Shown one piece after another: positions 9,669 through 15,161 of a DNA stretch of 26,526 nt (its first letter is position 1; each line of letters begins with the position of its first letter). The position numbers were made by a program, and so were the translations under genes. This DNA is from Oculatellaceae cyanobacterium bins.114 (lineage in GTDB: Bacteria; Cyanobacteriota; Cyanobacteriia; Elainellales; Elainellaceae), in assembly GCA_033764315.1 (NCBI GenBank), contig JANRJA010000244.1:1-26526 (forward strand), given 5' to 3'. The notes under the pieces are model-generated. The model was not told where the DNA came from, made no database searches, and saw only the letters and a program-made list of their open reading frames with translations.

Positions 9669-9742
<74 letters not shown>

Positions 9743-9918: not shown

Positions 9919-10446
9919 TTAGTTTCTCACCAACCACTTCTGCCCGTTTAACCGCTGCACTGTATAGAGCAGTAACAGGTCAAGCGATACTTTGCGTTCA
10001 TCAATCATAAAGGACTCCAGCGTACTGGGTTTTGACCCACCTTCAGAGTAGGCAAACACTTTCTGTCCCTGAATGTCTTCTTTTAAGAAGCCAATCAAAA
10101 ATTGTCGTTGCCCCGCTTTAAAGTCACCGAGCACCTGCCAGCATTCTCCAGCTTCCTCCAGTCCTTTAACCGGGAGCGATCGCTTTTCAAAGACTAGATC
10201 CAGGTCAGTAACGCCCAGCGTTTCCATCGTTTGCCTTAATTTGGGCAGATAATCTTGGGCAATAAAGTCTGCAAAAGGTTTATCTTCTAGCGCAGGGGCT
10301 TTTTCTTTTTTAGGCTTCTCTGCCTTAGCAGCAGGTGCTCCCTCGGCAGCAGGTTTTTCACGCTTTGGGGTAGCCGCAGGTTTTTCTGCCGCCGCTTCAG
10401 CCGGAGGGGTGTCTTGTGATTCAGTGGGGGTAGGTTCTTCTGGCAT
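9919..10446 (-). CDS. ndhV: DUF2996 protein, NDH-1 accessory subunit NdhV
   Basis: P/A/K/E-rich N-terminus, then EDKPFADFI...PSTLESFMIDERKVSLDLLLLYTVQRLNGQKWLVRN. Confidence 0.88.
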   Translation of the reverse strand: MPEEPTPTESQDTPPAEAAAEKPAATPKREKPAAEGAPAAKAEKPKKEKAPALEDKPFADFIAQDYLPKLRQTMETLGVTDLDLVFEKRSLPVKGLEEAGECWQVLGDFKAGQRQFLIGFLKEDIQGQKVFAYSEGGSKPSTLESFMIDERKVSLDLLLLYTVQRLNGQKWLVRN

Positions 10447-11939: not shown

Positions 11940-12215
11940 TTAGCCCCCAGCTACAGCGGGCACAATGCTAACTTCATCTCCAGCATTAAGGGGGGTATTA
12001 GCTCCCTCTAAAAAGCGAATGTCTTCACTATTGACATAGAAGTTGACAAAGCGACGCAGTTGACCCTGTTCATCACACAGACGGGCTTTGATGCCAGGAA
12101 AACTCTGCTCTAGCGAATCGAGCAACTCAATGATCGTTCCACCATCACACTCAATGGTGGATTGATCGCGGGTAAATTTTTGCAGCGGAGTCGGGATCAG
12201 AACTTTAACGGCCAT
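11940..12215 (-). CDS. MoaD/ThiS-family ubiquitin-like sulfur carrier (CysO/MetO-like)
   Basis: IPTPL...[16 protein letters not shown]...IVPAVAGG with free C-terminal GG. Confidence 0.92.
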
Positions 12216-12312
12216 AACTGAAAGGATGCAAGCGAAAGGATGAACGATAAAAATACAACCAAGGTAGAGACAAAGGACACAGACTAGAGCTTTATCCTTT
12301 TATCTCTCATCC

Positions 12313-13623
12313 TTAAACTAAGACTTGTTGCCACTCAAGACGCTCAAGAGTTCTAGATCTCTCAAGGGCACGCTCAAAGCTATCCAGTTTAGGTTCGATG
12401 GTGAGGGGTTCACCGATGTAACCCTGAATCGCTTCTTGAGTCTTCAAACCGTTGCCTGTGATATAAGCAACCGTAGTTTCATCAGGATCGATCTTGCCTG
12501 CCTCAGCCAATTTCTTGAGGACAGCGATCGTTGTACCACCCGCAGTTTCAGTAAAGATACCTTCAGTTTCAGCGAGTAATTTCATTCCCTCAATGATTTC
12601 AGCATCGGTGACAGATTCAATGTTGCCATTCGTTTTACGGGCAATATCCACAGCATAAATGCCATCTGCTGGATTTCCAATCGCGATCGACTTAGCGATC
12701 GTGCTGGGCTTGACTGGAGTGATGAAATCGCGCCCTTCTCGATAGGCTTGAGCGATCGGAGAACAGCCCTCCGCTTGAGCACCGCTAAACCGAACGGTCT
12801 TTTCATCCACTAAACCGACTTTGACAAACTCTTGGAAGCCCTTGTAGATCTTAGTAAACAATGAGCCAGAGGCCAGGGGGGCGACGATGTGATCAGGCAG
12901 TTGCCAACCAAGTTGCTCTGCCACTTCATAGCCCAACGTCTTAGACCCTTCTGAGTAATAGGGACGCAGGTTGATATTGACGAACCCCCACCCGTGGGTG
13001 TTAGCGACTTCAGAGCAGAGGCGATTGACCTGGTCATAGTTGCCTTGAACTGCCATCACCGTAGGACCGTAAATCAGCGTTCCTAAAATTTTTCCTGCTT
13101 CTAAATCGGCAGGGATGAAGACACAACAATCTAACCCTGCATGAGCCGCGATCGCCGCTGTCGAGTTTGCCAAGTTGCCAGTGCTGGCGCAAGAAACGGT
13201 AGTAAAACCTAACTCACGTGCACGAGTCAGAGCCACTGACACCACCCGATCTTTGAAGCTCAGGGTGGGCATGTTCACCGCATCATTCTTGATGTAGAGC
13301 TTTTTCAAACCAAGCCGACGAGCTAACCGATTAGCTTGCACCAGGGGCGTCATGCCAGTCCCCACATCAATGGGGTTATCGCTCAATACAGGCAGAAATG
13401 GACGGTAACGCCAAATTGAATTAGGCCCCGCTTGAATACTTTTGCGAGTGACCTGACGAGTTAAAGCGGCATAGTCGTAAGCAACTTCGAGGGGACCAAA
13501 GCAAAGCTCGCACACATGCACGGCTTTAAGTTCATACTCTGCGCCACACTCTTTGCATTTGAGTGCTCTAAAGGTTGCAGCCGTTGATTGACTTGTGGTT
13601 GAAAGGTCTAGAGCTTGGGTCAT
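12313..13623 (-). CDS. Threonine synthase-like fold-type II PLP enzyme (usually annotated thrC; possible MetM-type sulfhydrylase)
   Basis: PTLSFKDR PLP-lysine motif, ASTGN, N-terminal CKEC...CELC zinc ribbon, ITGNGLK. Confidence 0.9.
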   Translation of the reverse strand: MTQALDLSTTSQSTAATFRALKCKECGAEYELKAVHVCELCFGPLEVAYDYAALTRQVTRKSIQAGPNSIWRYRPFLPVLSDNPIDVGTGMTPLVQANRLARRLGLKKLYIKNDAVNMPTLSFKDRVVSVALTRARELGFTTVSCASTGNLANSTAAIAAHAGLDCCVFIPADLEAGKILGTLIYGPTVMAVQGNYDQVNRLCSEVANTHGWGFVNINLRPYYSEGSKTLGYEVAEQLGWQLPDHIVAPLASGSLFTKIYKGFQEFVKVGLVDEKTVRFSGAQAEGCSPIAQAYREGRDFITPVKPSTIAKSIAIGNPADGIYAVDIARKTNGNIESVTDAEIIEGMKLLAETEGIFTETAGGTTIAVLKKLAEAGKIDPDETTVAYITGNGLKTQEAIQGYIGEPLTIEPKLDSFERALERSRTLERLEWQQVLV

Positions 13624-13723: not shown

Positions 13724-13780
13724 ATCGTAACATGGCTCACAAAACCCCGTCAAACATACCCGACAAAATTTATCGGGTAT
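13724..13780 (-). promoter_or_regulatory. Sigma70-type promoter of the thrC-like operon with adjacent Rrf2/IscR-like palindrome
   Basis: Minus-strand TTGACG (13753-13748), 18-bp spacer, TGnTACGAT (-10 at 13729-13724); ATACCCGA-N9-TCGGGTAT at 13756-13780. Confidence 0.65.
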
Positions 13781-13844: not shown

Positions 13845-13872
13845 AACGTTGAGCGATCGCTCGCTCAACGTT
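13845..13872. repeat. Perfect 12-bp-stem hairpin overlapping a HIP1 site
   Basis: AACGTTGAGCGA-TCGC-TCGCTCAACGTT. Confidence 0.7.
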
Positions 13873-14171: not shown

Positions 14172-15161
14172 ATGAATTTATTAGTTGTAGGTGCCACCGG
14201 AACTTTAGGAAGGCAAGTTGTGCGTCGGGCTTTAGATGAAGGCTATGAAGTGCGCTGTCTAGTGCGTAGCTTTAGAAGAGCCGCTTTTCTAAAGGAATGG
14301 GGTGCTGAACTAGTGCAGGGTGACCTGTGCAAACCTGACACCCTCCCTGCTGCATTGGCAGGCATAACGGCTGTGATTGATGCGGCTACTGCTAGAGCTA
14401 CTGACTCTCTAAATATTAAAGCTGTCGATTGGGATGGTCAGGTTGCTCTCATTCAAGCTGCAAAAGCGGCTGGGGTAGAGCGGTTTGTCTTCTTCTCCAT
14501 TTTGGATGCAGATAAATATCCCGATGTGCCTCTGATGGAAATCAAGCATTGTGTTGAAGACTTTTTGGCAGAATCGGGGTTGAATTACACCATTTTGCAA
14601 ACATCAGGTTTTCTACAGGGCTTGATTGGCCAATACGCTATTCCTATTTTAGAAAAGCAAGCTGTTTGGGTCATGGGAAATACCTCAGCGATCGCCTATA
14701 TGGACACTCAAGATCTGGCGAAGTTTGCCGTCAGGTCACTTAAAGTGTCAGAAACAGTAAACCGCACCTTTCCGGTGGTCGGCACCCGCGCGTGGGAAGC
14801 GTATGAAATCATTCGTCTTTGTGAACGGCTTTCAGGACAGGAAGCGAAAGTGACTCGAATGCCGTTGGGGTTATTACGGGGCGTTCGGAGGATTGCTCGC
14901 TTTTTTCAATGGACCTGGAATATTGCCGATCGTCTCGCTTTCACTGAAGTCATTGCGGCTGGCAAACCCCTGAATGCGCCGATGGACGAAACTTATGCAG
15001 TCTTTGGTATTGACCCTAGTGAGACCACTACGTTAGAGGGCTACCTACAAGATTACTTTGGTCGCATTATGAAGAAGCTAAAGGAAATTGAGTACGAAAA
15101 AGAAAAAGCCAAAGAGCGAGAGCAAGCGCGACGACTCAAGCGGACTCCCTTTAAAAAATAG
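14172..15161 (+). CDS. ycf39: Ycf39 atypical SDR/NmrA-like protein (PSII assembly, HCF244 homolog)
   Basis: GATGTLGRQ, AAFLKEWGAELV, VDWDGQVALIQAA, VPLMEIK, FFQWTWNIADRLAF. Confidence 0.88.
   Translation: MNLLVVGATGTLGRQVVRRALDEGYEVRCLVRSFRRAAFLKEWGAELVQGDLCKPDTLPAALAGITAVIDAATARATDSLNIKAVDWDGQVALIQAAKAAGVERFVFFSILDADKYPDVPLMEIKHCVEDFLAESGLNYTILQTSGFLQGLIGQYAIPILEKQAVWVMGNTSAIAYMDTQDLAKFAVRSLKVSETVNRTFPVVGTRAWEAYEIIRLCERLSGQEAKVTRMPLGLLRGVRRIARFFQWTWNIADRLAFTEVIAAGKPLNAPMDETYAVFGIDPSETTTLEGYLQDYFGRIMKKLKEIEYEKEKAKEREQARRLKRTPFKK

Follow-up and report, generated by a model that had tools for sequence, protein, structure and literature searches.

A cyanobacterial gene labelled threonine synthase and its carrier neighbour: a probable homocysteine synthase of the MetM/MetO type

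Identification of the gene pair

Two adjacent genes in the genome of Oculatellaceae cyanobacterium bins.114 probably encode a thiocarboxylate-dependent homocysteine synthase of the MetM/MetO type. They lie on the minus strand of the window, by which we mean the whole stretch of 26,526 nucleotides that was analysed. This reading draws on the presence of two ThrC paralogs, linkage to a carrier gene, accessory genes elsewhere in the genome and the riboswitches of relatives, together with a phylogenetic tree, a model of the complex, the phyletic pattern and the literature.

On this reading the locus belongs, under a wrong label, to a known system, and the core identification is not new. A homocysteine route consisting of MetM, MetO, MoeZ and Mec was reportedly described for Streptomyces albulus by Hasebe et al. 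in 2024 (Appl Environ Microbiol 90:e01247-24). GapMind 2026 lists these four proteins with experimental evidence and states that MetM is often misannotated as threonine synthase (PMC13759103); the UniProt accessions in PMC13759103 are A0A059WBP2 for S. albulus MetM and A0A059W7F4 for MetO. A 2025 paper cites Hasebe 2024 for MetM/MetO homologs in cyanobacteria; it gives 51.6% identity between a Microcystis ortholog and S. albulus MetM, and 47% between the neighbouring protein and MetO (PMC12172450). The putative orthology of the window pair to the S. albulus proteins rests on these published Microcystis identities and on an indirect tree.

Gene organization

An earlier note on this DNA had described a ribbon-bearing PLP enzyme followed, after 97 bp, by a carrier on the same strand ending in AVAGG, and the minus-strand open reading frames confirm that description. 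The features of the locus are as follows.

12313..13623, minus strand: MetM-like gene (open reading frame call), encoding a 436-aa PLP enzyme of ThrC fold that carries a four-Cys ribbon at its N-terminus
13501..13557, minus strand: codons of the four-Cys ribbon, residues 23-41 (C23, C26, C38, C41), from alignment and a NinF-like Pfam match
13252..13254, minus strand: codon of Lys124, presumed to bind PLP, within the invariant S-F-K-D-R motif
12216..12312, minus strand: spacer of 97 bp between the enzyme and carrier genes (open reading frame coordinates)
11940..12215, minus strand: MetO-like gene, encoding a 91-aa CysO-type ubiquitin-fold sulfur carrier with the C-terminus ...IVPAVAGG
13724..13753, minus strand: predicted sigma-70-type promoter, TTGACG, 18-nt spacer and TACGAT, with TG before the -10 box (pattern scan and conservation)
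13759..13777, no strand assigned: palindrome CCCGAY-W7-RTCGGG, immediately upstream of the -35 box, a candidate operator or activator site (upstream alignment)
13845..13872, minus strand: hairpin with a 12-bp stem and then a T-run, upstream of the promoter (pattern scan only)

The enzyme

Residues 88-390 match the Pfam PALP family (259.8 bits), and residues 22-46 give a ribbon-like NinF match (29.6 bits) that spans the CxxC...CxxC pattern. An alignment of 27 rows shows no variation at C23, C38 and C41 and at least 90% conservation of C26. S122, K124, D125 and R126 are likewise invariant and are also found in canonical ThrC; from what is known of ThrC we take K124 to be the PLP lysine. Against the NCBIfam thrC model TIGR00260 the enzyme scores 341.4 bits (cut-off 167.1), so this model does not separate the MetM-like and ThrC clades. 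That the score lies far above the cut-off was counted against the MetM/MetO reading. All named database relatives of the enzyme carry the label threonine synthase. Assignment as cysteate synthase was rejected (TIGR03844, 82.9 bits versus a cut-off of 324.9), as was a cysteine synthase of the CysM/CysO type, the CysM and CysK models being absent from the 25 best NCBIfam matches, among which ThrC models are best.

The genome also encodes a canonical ThrC (373 aa, contig C26), as the earlier note had suggested it might; the window gene is thus not the sole thrC. The two proteins share 37% identity. The four-Cys ribbon is absent from canonical ThrC, PDB chains of ThrC (e.g. 2zsj and 1uim) align to the enzyme only from about residue 64-70 onward, and a PDB search with the enzyme found no ribbon-bearing chain. 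A comparison of the MetM-like and canonical ThrC groups gave 74 near-invariant positions common to both, including the substrate- and PLP-binding motifs, and 36 that are fixed differently (MetM-like/ThrC: e.g. R220/N180, Y223/R183, S252/N211 and L151/T111). Each of the 53 sampled cyanobacteria carries one ortholog of the enzyme with 78-100% identity and one further match at about 36-41%.

A phylogeny against ThrC had also been proposed. In a tree of 127 rows the window protein falls, with riboswitch-linked proteins, in a clade of 78 (SH-aLRT 98) that includes 16 actinobacterial proteins linked to a SAM riboswitch. A branch with support of 100 splits the canonical ThrC group from this clade, and the window enzyme lies outside that group. 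The view that the 'thrC' of the window is misannotated is supported: the enzyme is very probably of the MetM type and partnered by the adjacent carrier.

The carrier

The carrier matches the ThiS family PF02597 (67.1 bits, Pfam) and moaD_arch (52.4 bits, cut-off 49.5). Among solved structures its profile is closest to M. tuberculosis CysO (3dwg_C, E 2.2e-33), and it also matches the CysO-like carrier in PDB entry 4n6e, which we take to hold a thiosugar synthase together with its carrier. In actinobacteria, carriers of the CysO type work with several enzymes. The remaining two carriers of the genome are ThiS and a MoaD-like protein.

The C-terminus reads IVPA[VI]AGG-stop in all 30 cyanobacterial copies. 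Since the carrier already ends in GG, the C-terminal processing that is Mec-dependent in Streptomyces is not needed. One carrier ortholog is present in each of the 53 sampled cyanobacterial genomes, and in 50 of these its gene immediately follows that of the enzyme on the same strand; the pairing is therefore not a matter of chance. The spacer between the two genes ranges from 45 to 494 bp over 30 cyanobacterial loci.

The upstream region

The promoter pattern scan, taken alone, returned two matches versus a mean of 3.6 in shuffled sequences, no excess over chance. A TTGACG-N17/18-TAnnnT block is nevertheless aligned in all 30 cyanobacterial loci. All 30 aligned upstream regions also contain the palindrome; its arms are near-invariant and its 7-nt spacer is composed only of A/T. 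In its strict and relaxed forms it occurs once in the 6.64-Mb assembly, at the window site; a looser form gave 617 matches genome-wide, which amount to noise and resolve no regulon sites. The hairpin and T-run further upstream would shield the operon from read-through.

A search of the coding strand upstream of the genes in the window gave no Rfam element or SAM riboswitch, either at the gathering threshold or at E values as high as 1, and this was counted against the MetM/MetO reading. A weak match to nqrA-II (25.2 bits, threshold 55) is on the opposite strand. Relatives with 50-62% identity to the window enzyme are riboswitch-linked: a SAM riboswitch is directly upstream of the gene in 15 of 15 scanned actinobacterial loci, and of 20 loci scanned in other high-GC lineages 11 have one upstream. 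Downstream of the enzyme gene, 29 of 80 high-GC loci among the matches listed carry a MetO-like gene, and riboswitch, enzyme and carrier are combined in the loci of six relatives. No Streptomyces titles occur among the 80 loci listed for a query with an actinobacterial relative or the 80 listed for a high-GC DNA pattern for EVAEQLGW. The palindrome may, with the promoter, stand in for the SAM riboswitch of other phyla.

Accessory genes and alternative routes to homocysteine

The pair had been expected to need a MoeB/MoeZ activator and a JAMM/Mec peptidase encoded elsewhere, and a mec-moeZ operon is indeed present on contig C152. The MoeZ-like E1 is a 404-aa protein with ThiF and rhodanese domains; it scores 797 bits against NF005646 (cut-off 633) and 525.6 against the MoeZ model NF005902, under the cut-off of 647. 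Its gene was found in all 53 sampled cyanobacteria. Mec, a 159-aa Prok-JAB protein (91.6 bits), is encoded directly upstream of moeZ and was found in 41 of the 53 genomes and not in the other 12, a distribution that was counted against the MetM/MetO reading. As the carrier requires no trimming, Mec is probably dispensable here. Homoserine kinase (thrB) is encoded on contig C188.

The predicted absence of metA, metX, metB, metY and metZ fails, there being a metY-metX operon on contig C179. Proteins of the DUF39 (HcyBio) and NIL/ferredoxin types are encoded in the genome as well. MetM/MetO is one of three candidate routes to homocysteine in this organism, the others being MetX/MetY and DUF39 with NIL/ferredoxin. 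On paper, given these two, the route is unneeded, and this also was counted against the MetM/MetO reading.

Distribution across cyanobacteria

The earlier note had gone further and taken the pair to be the cyanobacterial sulfur-insertion step, a claim that finds only partial support. In favour of a general role, 34 of the 53 sampled cyanobacteria are without a strong PF01053 enzyme (Cys/Met-PLP; the MetB/C/Y/Z family); against an exclusive one, DUF39 and NIL/ferredoxin proteins were found in all 53. Since the latter are as widespread as MetM/MetO, an argument from the lack of another route in cyanobacteria does not hold.

Among 401 sampled cyanobacteria the MetM-like gene is present in 363 and DUF39 in 360, and the two co-occur. 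Of the 39 genomes in family f17, the same ten carry the MetM-like gene and DUF39, and both are missing from the other 29. The 29 genomes are small and all have PF01053 (MetY/MetB-type) enzymes, which occur in two of the ten that keep the MetM-like gene. In five of the 29 that were tested the carrier was found in none, NIL/ferredoxin in none apart from one 19.7-bit match, and MoeZ in all five. Three genomes of family f9 (G204, G263 and G275; 62-88% complete) are also without the MetM-like gene and DUF39. The f17 pattern derives mostly from one lineage and so represents few independent events. Literature searches found nothing relevant on DUF39 and homocysteine in cyanobacteria and added nothing on S. 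elongatus essentiality and Synechocystis genes; PMC11350084, in its available part, treats plant routes only.

Published data on the Microcystis ortholog

In Microcystis, threonine induces the ortholog of the enzyme 10.5-fold and its carrier neighbour 6.8-fold, and methionine reverses this induction and relieves threonine toxicity (PMC12172450). The MetM/MetO reading would explain the toxicity simply, in that excess threonine starves the cell of methionine precursors and induces the operon. The purified protein was described as an OPHS-dependent 'threonine synthase' (Vmax 0.0176 umol/mg/min, Km 4.4 uM) in an assay without carrier thiocarboxylate, and threonine deaminase activity was claimed (PMC12172450). 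The study saw no rise in methionine and, with Na2S, only an unidentified peak, the carrier thiocarboxylate having been omitted (PMC12172450). By our own arithmetic the Vmax corresponds to about 0.014 per second for a protein of about 47 kDa, the level of a side reaction. The OPHS and threonine kinetics were counted against the MetM/MetO reading.

Model of the enzyme-carrier complex

The predicted complex of enzyme and carrier scored 0.63 and the best of three controls 0.00; the mark applied to this score is attained by 116 of 157 solved complexes and by 2 of 215 mismatched pairs. The model runs have at least 82% of contacts in common, with a partner pLDDT of at least 86. The predicted interface comprises enzyme residues 25 and 35-44 on the ribbon side, residues 146, 151, 216-220 and 252-254 in the active-site loops, and residues 83 and 85-91 of the carrier tail. 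The model puts the carrier's tail at the active site and its body on the ribbon. Because the PDB holds no ribbon-bearing chain that our search could find, the ribbon contact was not taken over from a solved structure; the placing of the tail in the site may have been, since a CysM-CysO complex has already been solved. Group-specific residues account for 4 of 24 catalytic-domain positions at the interface versus about 2.3 expected, which is not meaningful.

Proposed mechanism

We infer a sequence of steps that would begin with the formation of O-phospho-L-homoserine by homoserine kinase. The MoeZ-like E1 would adenylate Gly91 of the carrier, leading to a C-terminal thiocarboxylate. The ThrC-fold enzyme would take O-phosphohomoserine onto PLP at Lys124 and eliminate phosphate as in threonine synthase, and the carrier thiocarboxylate, in place of water, would then attack C-gamma. 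Hydrolysis of the acyl-homocysteine adduct, possibly aided by the JAMM protein Mec, would yield homocysteine for methylation to methionine. In the modelled complex the N-terminal zinc ribbon would grip the carrier body while the PAVAGG tail enters the active site. Transcription may start from the conserved sigma-70 promoter beside a promoter-specific palindrome, an arrangement that would replace the SAM riboswitch.

Alternative explanations

That the enzyme is a true threonine synthase with a moonlighting activity as threonine deaminase, and that the adjacent carrier serves another process, is highly improbable in our view. The TIGR00260 score of 341.4 bits, the substrate- and PLP-binding motifs among the 74 near-invariant positions common with canonical ThrC, and the turnover of OPHS and threonine in vitro by the Microcystis protein (PMC12172450) would all fit such an enzyme. 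Yet the Microcystis rate of roughly 0.014 per second is that of a side reaction, each of the 53 sampled genomes also has a canonical ThrC, and the carrier is adjacent in 50 of them. The predicted enzyme-carrier complex passes its controls, the relatives are under SAM riboswitch control, and the gene has been lost where MetY-type enzymes are present rather than where ThrC is duplicated. There is a still slighter chance that the pair makes another sulfur compound, whether cysteine from O-phosphoserine in the manner of CysM/CysO or a thio-amino acid destined for a cofactor or a natural product. The carrier is what suggests it, with CysO (3dwg_C, E 2.2e-33) nearest among solved structures and the 4n6e carrier also matched; the best models for the enzyme are all ThrC, with no CysM or CysK in the best 25, the SAM riboswitches of relatives point to methionine, and near-universal, single-copy conservation at 78-100% suits core metabolism and not a natural product.

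The distribution data raise a different question, namely whether MetM/MetO is stand-alone in cyanobacteria or forms one system with DUF39 (HcyBio) and the NIL/2x[4Fe-4S] ferredoxin. DUF39 and NIL/ferredoxin could, for example, mobilise or reduce the carrier sulfur, or NIL could be a subunit or sensor of MetM/MetO. We consider a joint system quite unlikely. All four genes are present in the 53 sampled genomes, and in f17 the MetM-like gene and DUF39 are retained by the same ten of 39 genomes and missing together from 29, the tested losers having neither carrier nor NIL/ferredoxin (0/5 each) and all having MoeZ (5/5); the three f9 genomes without both agree, though they are only 62-88% complete. 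Two independent routes made redundant by fixed MetY/MetB-type enzymes would, however, equally predict joint loss, and the losses amount to one or two events. Gene order points in both directions. In 6 of 180 loci a stand-alone NIL gene separates the MetM-like gene from the MetO-like one (where a carrier was found); the titles of all six name Chloroflexi, Chloroflexota or Dehalococcoidia, and the NIL protein shares 33-41% identity with the NIL half of the NIL/ferredoxin protein of cyanobacteria. DUF39 is a neighbour of MetM/MetO in none of the 180 loci and not in this genome. In addition, DUF39 with NIL/ferredoxin functions without MetM in Methanosarcina and Desulfovibrio, according to the available part of PMC5764234.

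Implications

The MetM/MetO reading has consequences for annotation. With the relatives all labelled threonine synthase, cyanobacterial metabolic models carry a false second ThrC, and the models of many strains have a gap between homoserine and homocysteine. The co-distribution with DUF39 and NIL/ferredoxin, the modelled ribbon dock and the single-copy palindrome provide experimental handles on cyanobacterial methionine synthesis. One speculative proposal, which we think unlikely, is that in oxygenic cyanobacteria the ribbon-bearing MetM, the GG-ending carrier, DUF39 and the NIL/2x[4Fe-4S] ferredoxin constitute one ancestral homocysteine module that is kept or lost jointly, in which the ribbon would act as the dock, NIL would couple or sense the two halves, and a regulator-bound palindrome would replace the riboswitch. 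If this four-gene module were real, the Streptomyces and methanogen routes to homocysteine would be mechanistically linked.

Comparison with known systems

Canonical ThrC resembles the window enzyme in its fold, its PLP-lysine motif and the likely substrate, O-phosphohomoserine; the window enzyme differs in the additional ribbon of about 65 residues, in having its own carrier as neighbour and in belonging to a separate clade. The S. albulus MetM/MetO system, as described in PMC12172450 and PMC13759103, shares a PLP enzyme annotated as ThrC, a Gly-Gly-terminated ubiquitin-fold carrier, genes at other places in the genome for a ThiF-rhodanese E1 and a JAMM protein, and a supply of O-phosphohomoserine via thrB. 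In Streptomyces a SAM riboswitch is found where the cyanobacteria have the conserved palindrome and promoter, and maturation of the carrier is Mec-dependent, whereas the carrier of cyanobacteria is encoded with a terminal GG. Only 1 of 80 loci listed for actinobacterial relatives has the carrier gene next to the enzyme gene, in contrast to 50 of 53 cyanobacteria, and the cyanobacterial pair, unlike the S. albulus system, is always accompanied by DUF39 and NIL/ferredoxin (53 genomes).

The M. tuberculosis CysM/CysO/Mec/MoeZ system (3DWG/3DWM) likewise combines a thiocarboxylate carrier, a fold-type-II PLP enzyme and a phospho-amino acid, with a homologous carrier and the same types of E1 and JAMM protein. 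CysM is a member of the CysM/CysK family, whereas the window enzyme is of the ThrC family with an N-terminal zinc ribbon; CysM acts on O-phosphoserine by beta-replacement, and the window enzyme would be expected to act on O-phosphohomoserine by gamma-replacement.

DUF39 (MA1821) with NIL/ferredoxin (MA1822) is a genetically proven homocysteine route in Methanosarcina and Desulfovibrio, as given in the available part of PMC5764234. It starts from aspartate semialdehyde and uses no carrier, whereas MetM/MetO starts from homoserine. The DUF39 route also has a COG2122 partner. The two have in common a non-classical synthesis of homocysteine, presence in the same genome and the same phyletic pattern across cyanobacteria. 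Neither the DUF39 nor the NIL/ferredoxin protein is related to MetM/MetO, and their genes are not adjacent to those of the window.

In Wolinella succinogenes, which uses HcyS, HcyF, HcyD and MetY, a carrier thiocarboxylate gives the sulfur for homocysteine. The likeness is the ubiquitin-fold carrier thiocarboxylate as the sulfur donor; the available part of PMC5764234 names the route only as 'the protein thiocarboxylate pathway'. The acceptor is where the two systems part, being MetY (PF01053) acting on O-acetylhomoserine in Wolinella and a ThrC-fold enzyme in the window.

The gene pair

The earlier note had described a zinc-ribbon PLP enzyme followed, after 97 bp on the same strand, by a carrier ending in AVAGG. 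This proved right throughout, and the ORFs and domains match.

12313..13623, minus strand: MetM-like enzyme ORF, 436 aa (ORF listing)
12216-12312: 97 bp spacer between the two minus-strand ORFs
11940..12215, minus strand: MetO-like carrier ORF, 91 aa, C-terminus IVPAVAGG (ORF listing)

The Pfam search assigns the enzyme to the fold-type II PLP proteins (PALP, 259.8 bits, residues 88-390). At its N-terminus is a CxxC...CxxC ribbon, with residues 22-46 matched by a NinF-like domain; in a 27-row alignment Cys23, Cys38 and Cys41 are invariant and Cys26 is at least 90% conserved. The protein scores 341.4 bits against the thrC model TIGR00260 (cut-off 167.1), 298.8 bits against the ribbon-type model NF006050, slightly below the cut-off of 303, and 82.9 bits against the cysteate synthase model (cut-off 324.9). 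Its best 120 database relatives are 87-96% identical, and every named one is called threonine synthase. The carrier belongs to the ThiS/MoaD family (PF02597, 67.1 bits; moaD_arch, 52.4 bits, cut-off 49.5). Elsewhere in the window a tRNA gene (9669-9742, minus strand; RF00005, 69.6 bits) adjoins a gene for a DUF2996 protein (9919-10446).

Phylogeny and distant relatives

A 127-row tree (quick IQ-TREE search, LG+G4) was built from ten cyanobacterial MetM-like proteins, 16 actinobacterial proteins, 13 canonical cyanobacterial ThrCs, eight proteins of the phylum's other classes and, out of the 150 relatives listed, 80 full-length representatives (380-470 aa). Canonical ThrCs form a single group (support 99), and all ribbon-bearing proteins are set apart by a branch 0.38 long (support 100). 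All 16 actinobacterial proteins share a clade of 78 members (support 98) with the window protein, in a tree whose rows are skewed to matches of this protein and exclude the characterised Streptomyces albulus MetM.

A search at E up to 0.001 in a library with clusters at 50% identity found 13,981 relatives. Among full-length relatives outside cyanobacteria the closest are 50-63% identical to the MetM-like enzyme, and one of them, from a Micromonosporaceae bacterium, was the query for a set of 80 listed actinobacterial loci. A SAM riboswitch lies directly upstream of the MetM-like gene in all 15 of these loci that were scanned, and a MetO-like gene within 2.5 kb in one of the 80. A DNA-pattern search listed a further 80 high-GC loci, from Actinomycetota, Chloroflexota, Acidimicrobiia, Armatimonadota and others. 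All carry a MetM-like gene (78 at 47% identity or more, two at 34%), 29 have a MetO-like gene downstream and 11 of the 20 scanned have the riboswitch upstream; riboswitch, enzyme and carrier share one operon in six (L158, L160, L185, L191, L195 and L218). Among 27 complete carriers 22 end in GG-stop and five have 1-6 extra residues.

In six of the 180 loci examined, from Chloroflexi/Chloroflexota/Dehalococcoidia (L162, L164, L167, L203, L228 and L229), a stand-alone NIL protein is encoded just 3' of the MetM-like gene, ahead of any carrier gene found. These ORFs, of about 70-86 aa, match the NIL half of the cyanobacterial NIL/ferredoxin protein at 33-41% identity. DUF39 was found in none of the 180 loci.

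Conservation in cyanobacteria

The phylum sample comprised 151 genomes, 53 of them from the class of the window. Each of the 53 has one MetM-like ortholog at 78-100% identity and also another match at about 36-41%; the other classes gave only matches of 35-42%. The carrier is likewise present in all 53, in single copy (64-100% identity), and lies directly 3' of the enzyme gene on the same strand in 50; it is 18 kb away in G113, on a different contig in G146 and also apart in G134. In 30 cyanobacterial loci read closely every carrier is 91 aa long and terminates in IVPA[VI]AGG-stop, with spacers of 45-494 bp.

A MoeZ-like E1 is encoded in all 53 genomes. In G038 the gene (G038:C1:270556-271815) matches as two adjoining pieces, residues 19-192 and 190-404, which may reflect a frameshift or a split gene. 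Mec was detected in 39 genomes by protein query and in two more, with an intact frame, by the Pfam model; it was not found by these searches in 12 of the 53, which is consistent with a carrier needing no C-terminal trimming. Beside moeZ in G086 (G086:C1:1062586-1062708) there is only a 33-aa JAB remnant bearing three stops.

Strong PF01053 enzymes occur in 19 of the 53 genomes and MetX above its cut-off in 13, adjoining metY in every case. Fragments of metX/metY are found in G065 and G086. These remnants (G065:C437:8945-9900 and G086:C1:5283484-5284221), truncated or stop-containing, come from one genus, and both genomes keep MetM/MetO; they look like decay of the classical route.

Accessory genes and competing routes

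The assembly (251 contigs, 6.64 Mb, 90.7% complete), in which the window is contig C195, holds the second, canonical thrC that the earlier note had proposed looking for. It lies on contig C26 (336.5 bits, ORF of 373 aa), has neither ribbon nor neighbouring carrier, and its product is 37% identical to the MetM-like enzyme over 326 residues. Homoserine kinase is encoded on C188 (280.8 bits, cut-off 168.25). The activator and JAMM peptidase expected elsewhere in the genome are together on C152, where a gene for a 159-aa Prok-JAB protein is directly upstream of that for a 404-aa ThiF plus rhodanese E1 (NF005646, 797 bits, cut-off 633; MoeZ model, 525.6 bits, below the cut-off of 647). The genome encodes three sulfur carriers: the MetO-like protein of the window, ThiS (84.3 bits) and a MoaD-like protein (57.9 bits, below its cut-off).

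The predicted absence of metA/X/B/Y/Z does not hold: a metY-metX operon is present on C179 (TIGR01326, 714 bits, cut-off 495; NF001209, 415.7 bits, cut-off 331). MetA was not found in this genome. Genes of another candidate route are also present:

G000:C100:17498-18589 (L271:3918-5135), minus strand: DUF39/HcyBio gene, 405 aa, 498.8 bits
G000:C52 (L272:1306-1710), minus strand: NIL protein with two 4Fe-4S motifs, 134 aa

Since metY-metX and the DUF39 and NIL/ferredoxin genes exist in addition to the pair, this genome has three candidate homocysteine routes.

Co-distribution with DUF39

DUF39 and NIL/ferredoxin each occur in all 53 sampled class genomes. In a larger sample of 401 genomes of the class, with the MetM-like gene called at E up to 1e-120, this gene is present in 363, DUF39 in 360 and PF01053 enzymes in 148; so strict a threshold can overlook genes broken at contig ends. 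Misses of the MetM-like gene and DUF39 cluster in family f17 (39 genomes of 1.6-3.7 Mb), where the same ten genomes have both and the other 29 neither. PF01053 enzymes, usually two, occur in all 29, and in only two of the ten. Five of the 29 (99-100% complete) were tested: no carrier was found in them and no NIL/ferredoxin, bar one 19.7-bit match, while MoeZ is present in all five. Because these kin are not independent, the joint losses represent one or two events. Three family f9 genomes, of only 62-88% completeness, also lack both genes, and a few genomes are discordant: G272 has DUF39 without a MetM-like gene at E 1e-120, and G304 is the opposite.

The DUF39 homolog of f17 is divergent (Pfam model E of about 1e-37 to 1e-56 versus about 1e-145 in other cyanobacteria; G110, G142, G306, G315, G357, G364, G420, G472, G478 and G490) and sits in a lineage whose relatives have lost DUF39.

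Upstream region

13759-13777: palindrome CCCGAY-W7-RTCGGG, abutting the -35 box; same position in L022-L050
13753-13748, minus strand: -35 box (promoter scan and conservation)
ending at 13724, minus strand: -10 box (promoter scan and conservation)
13845-13872, minus strand: strong hairpin of 12 pairs, then a T-run, just upstream of the operon promoter

All 30 cyanobacterial upstream regions have in common the block A-W-W-CCCGAY-W7-RTCGGG-TATGTTTGACG-N17/18-TAnnnT, and the palindrome is conserved in them across many families. In the window the leader is about 95 nt long. The palindrome occurs once in the 6.64 Mb assembly, at the window site, and we read it as the putative site of a dedicated regulator. 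No Rfam family matched upstream of the MetM-like gene in the window. The hairpin and T-run sit in the 548 bp gap between the operon and a divergent NmrA-like gene at 14172.

Model of the complex

With alignments for both chains the enzyme-carrier model scored 0.63, a mark attained by 116 of 157 solved complexes versus 2 of 215 mismatched pairs; the best control scored 0.00. The runs have at least 82% of contacts in common, with partner pLDDT of at least 86. Our model supports binding of the carrier by the enzyme. The predicted interface involves ribbon residues 25 and 35-44, enzyme loops at 146, 151, 197-209, 216-217, 220, 252, 254, 300-305 and 315-319, and carrier residues 83 and 85-91, among others. 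A solved structure exists for the CysM-CysO complex (3DWG), so the way in which the tail enters the site in our model may derive from it. For the ribbon, a PDB search found no solved chain covering it, the best matches being ThrCs aligning from residue 64-70 onward; we therefore infer afresh that it may be the carrier dock.

Comparison with known systems

A threonine synthase reading has been advanced for the Microcystis ortholog: in PMC12172450 the enzyme is taken as a threonine synthase and deaminase, on the basis of a Vmax of 0.0176 µmol/mg/min (by our arithmetic about 0.014 per second) in an assay run without carrier thiocarboxylate. The same paper reports that the gene responds to threonine with 10.5-fold induction and its carrier neighbour with 6.8-fold induction, that methionine undoes the induction and eases toxicity, and that Hasebe et al. 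noted homologs in cyanobacteria. According to PMC13759103, MetO, Mec, MoeZ and MetM of Streptomyces are experimentally supported, one MetO terminus is matured by Mec, and MetM is frequently misannotated as threonine synthase. A homocysteine route of DUF39, NIL/ferredoxin and COG2122 is documented in PMC5764234; our literature search on cyanobacterial DUF39 found nothing.

Three aspects seem undescribed in the literature searched and are offered as leads rather than findings: that the pair is kept and lost together with DUF39 and NIL/ferredoxin, the role modelled for the zinc ribbon, and the promoter-specific palindrome. The earlier note had claimed that a misannotated 'thrC' and its carrier form the cyanobacterial sulfur-insertion step. 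We consider it quite likely that the pair is a cyanobacterial MetM/MetO homocysteine synthase, but this genome holds other candidate routes as well. Most likely the pair is a known kind of system under a wrong label and not a new one.
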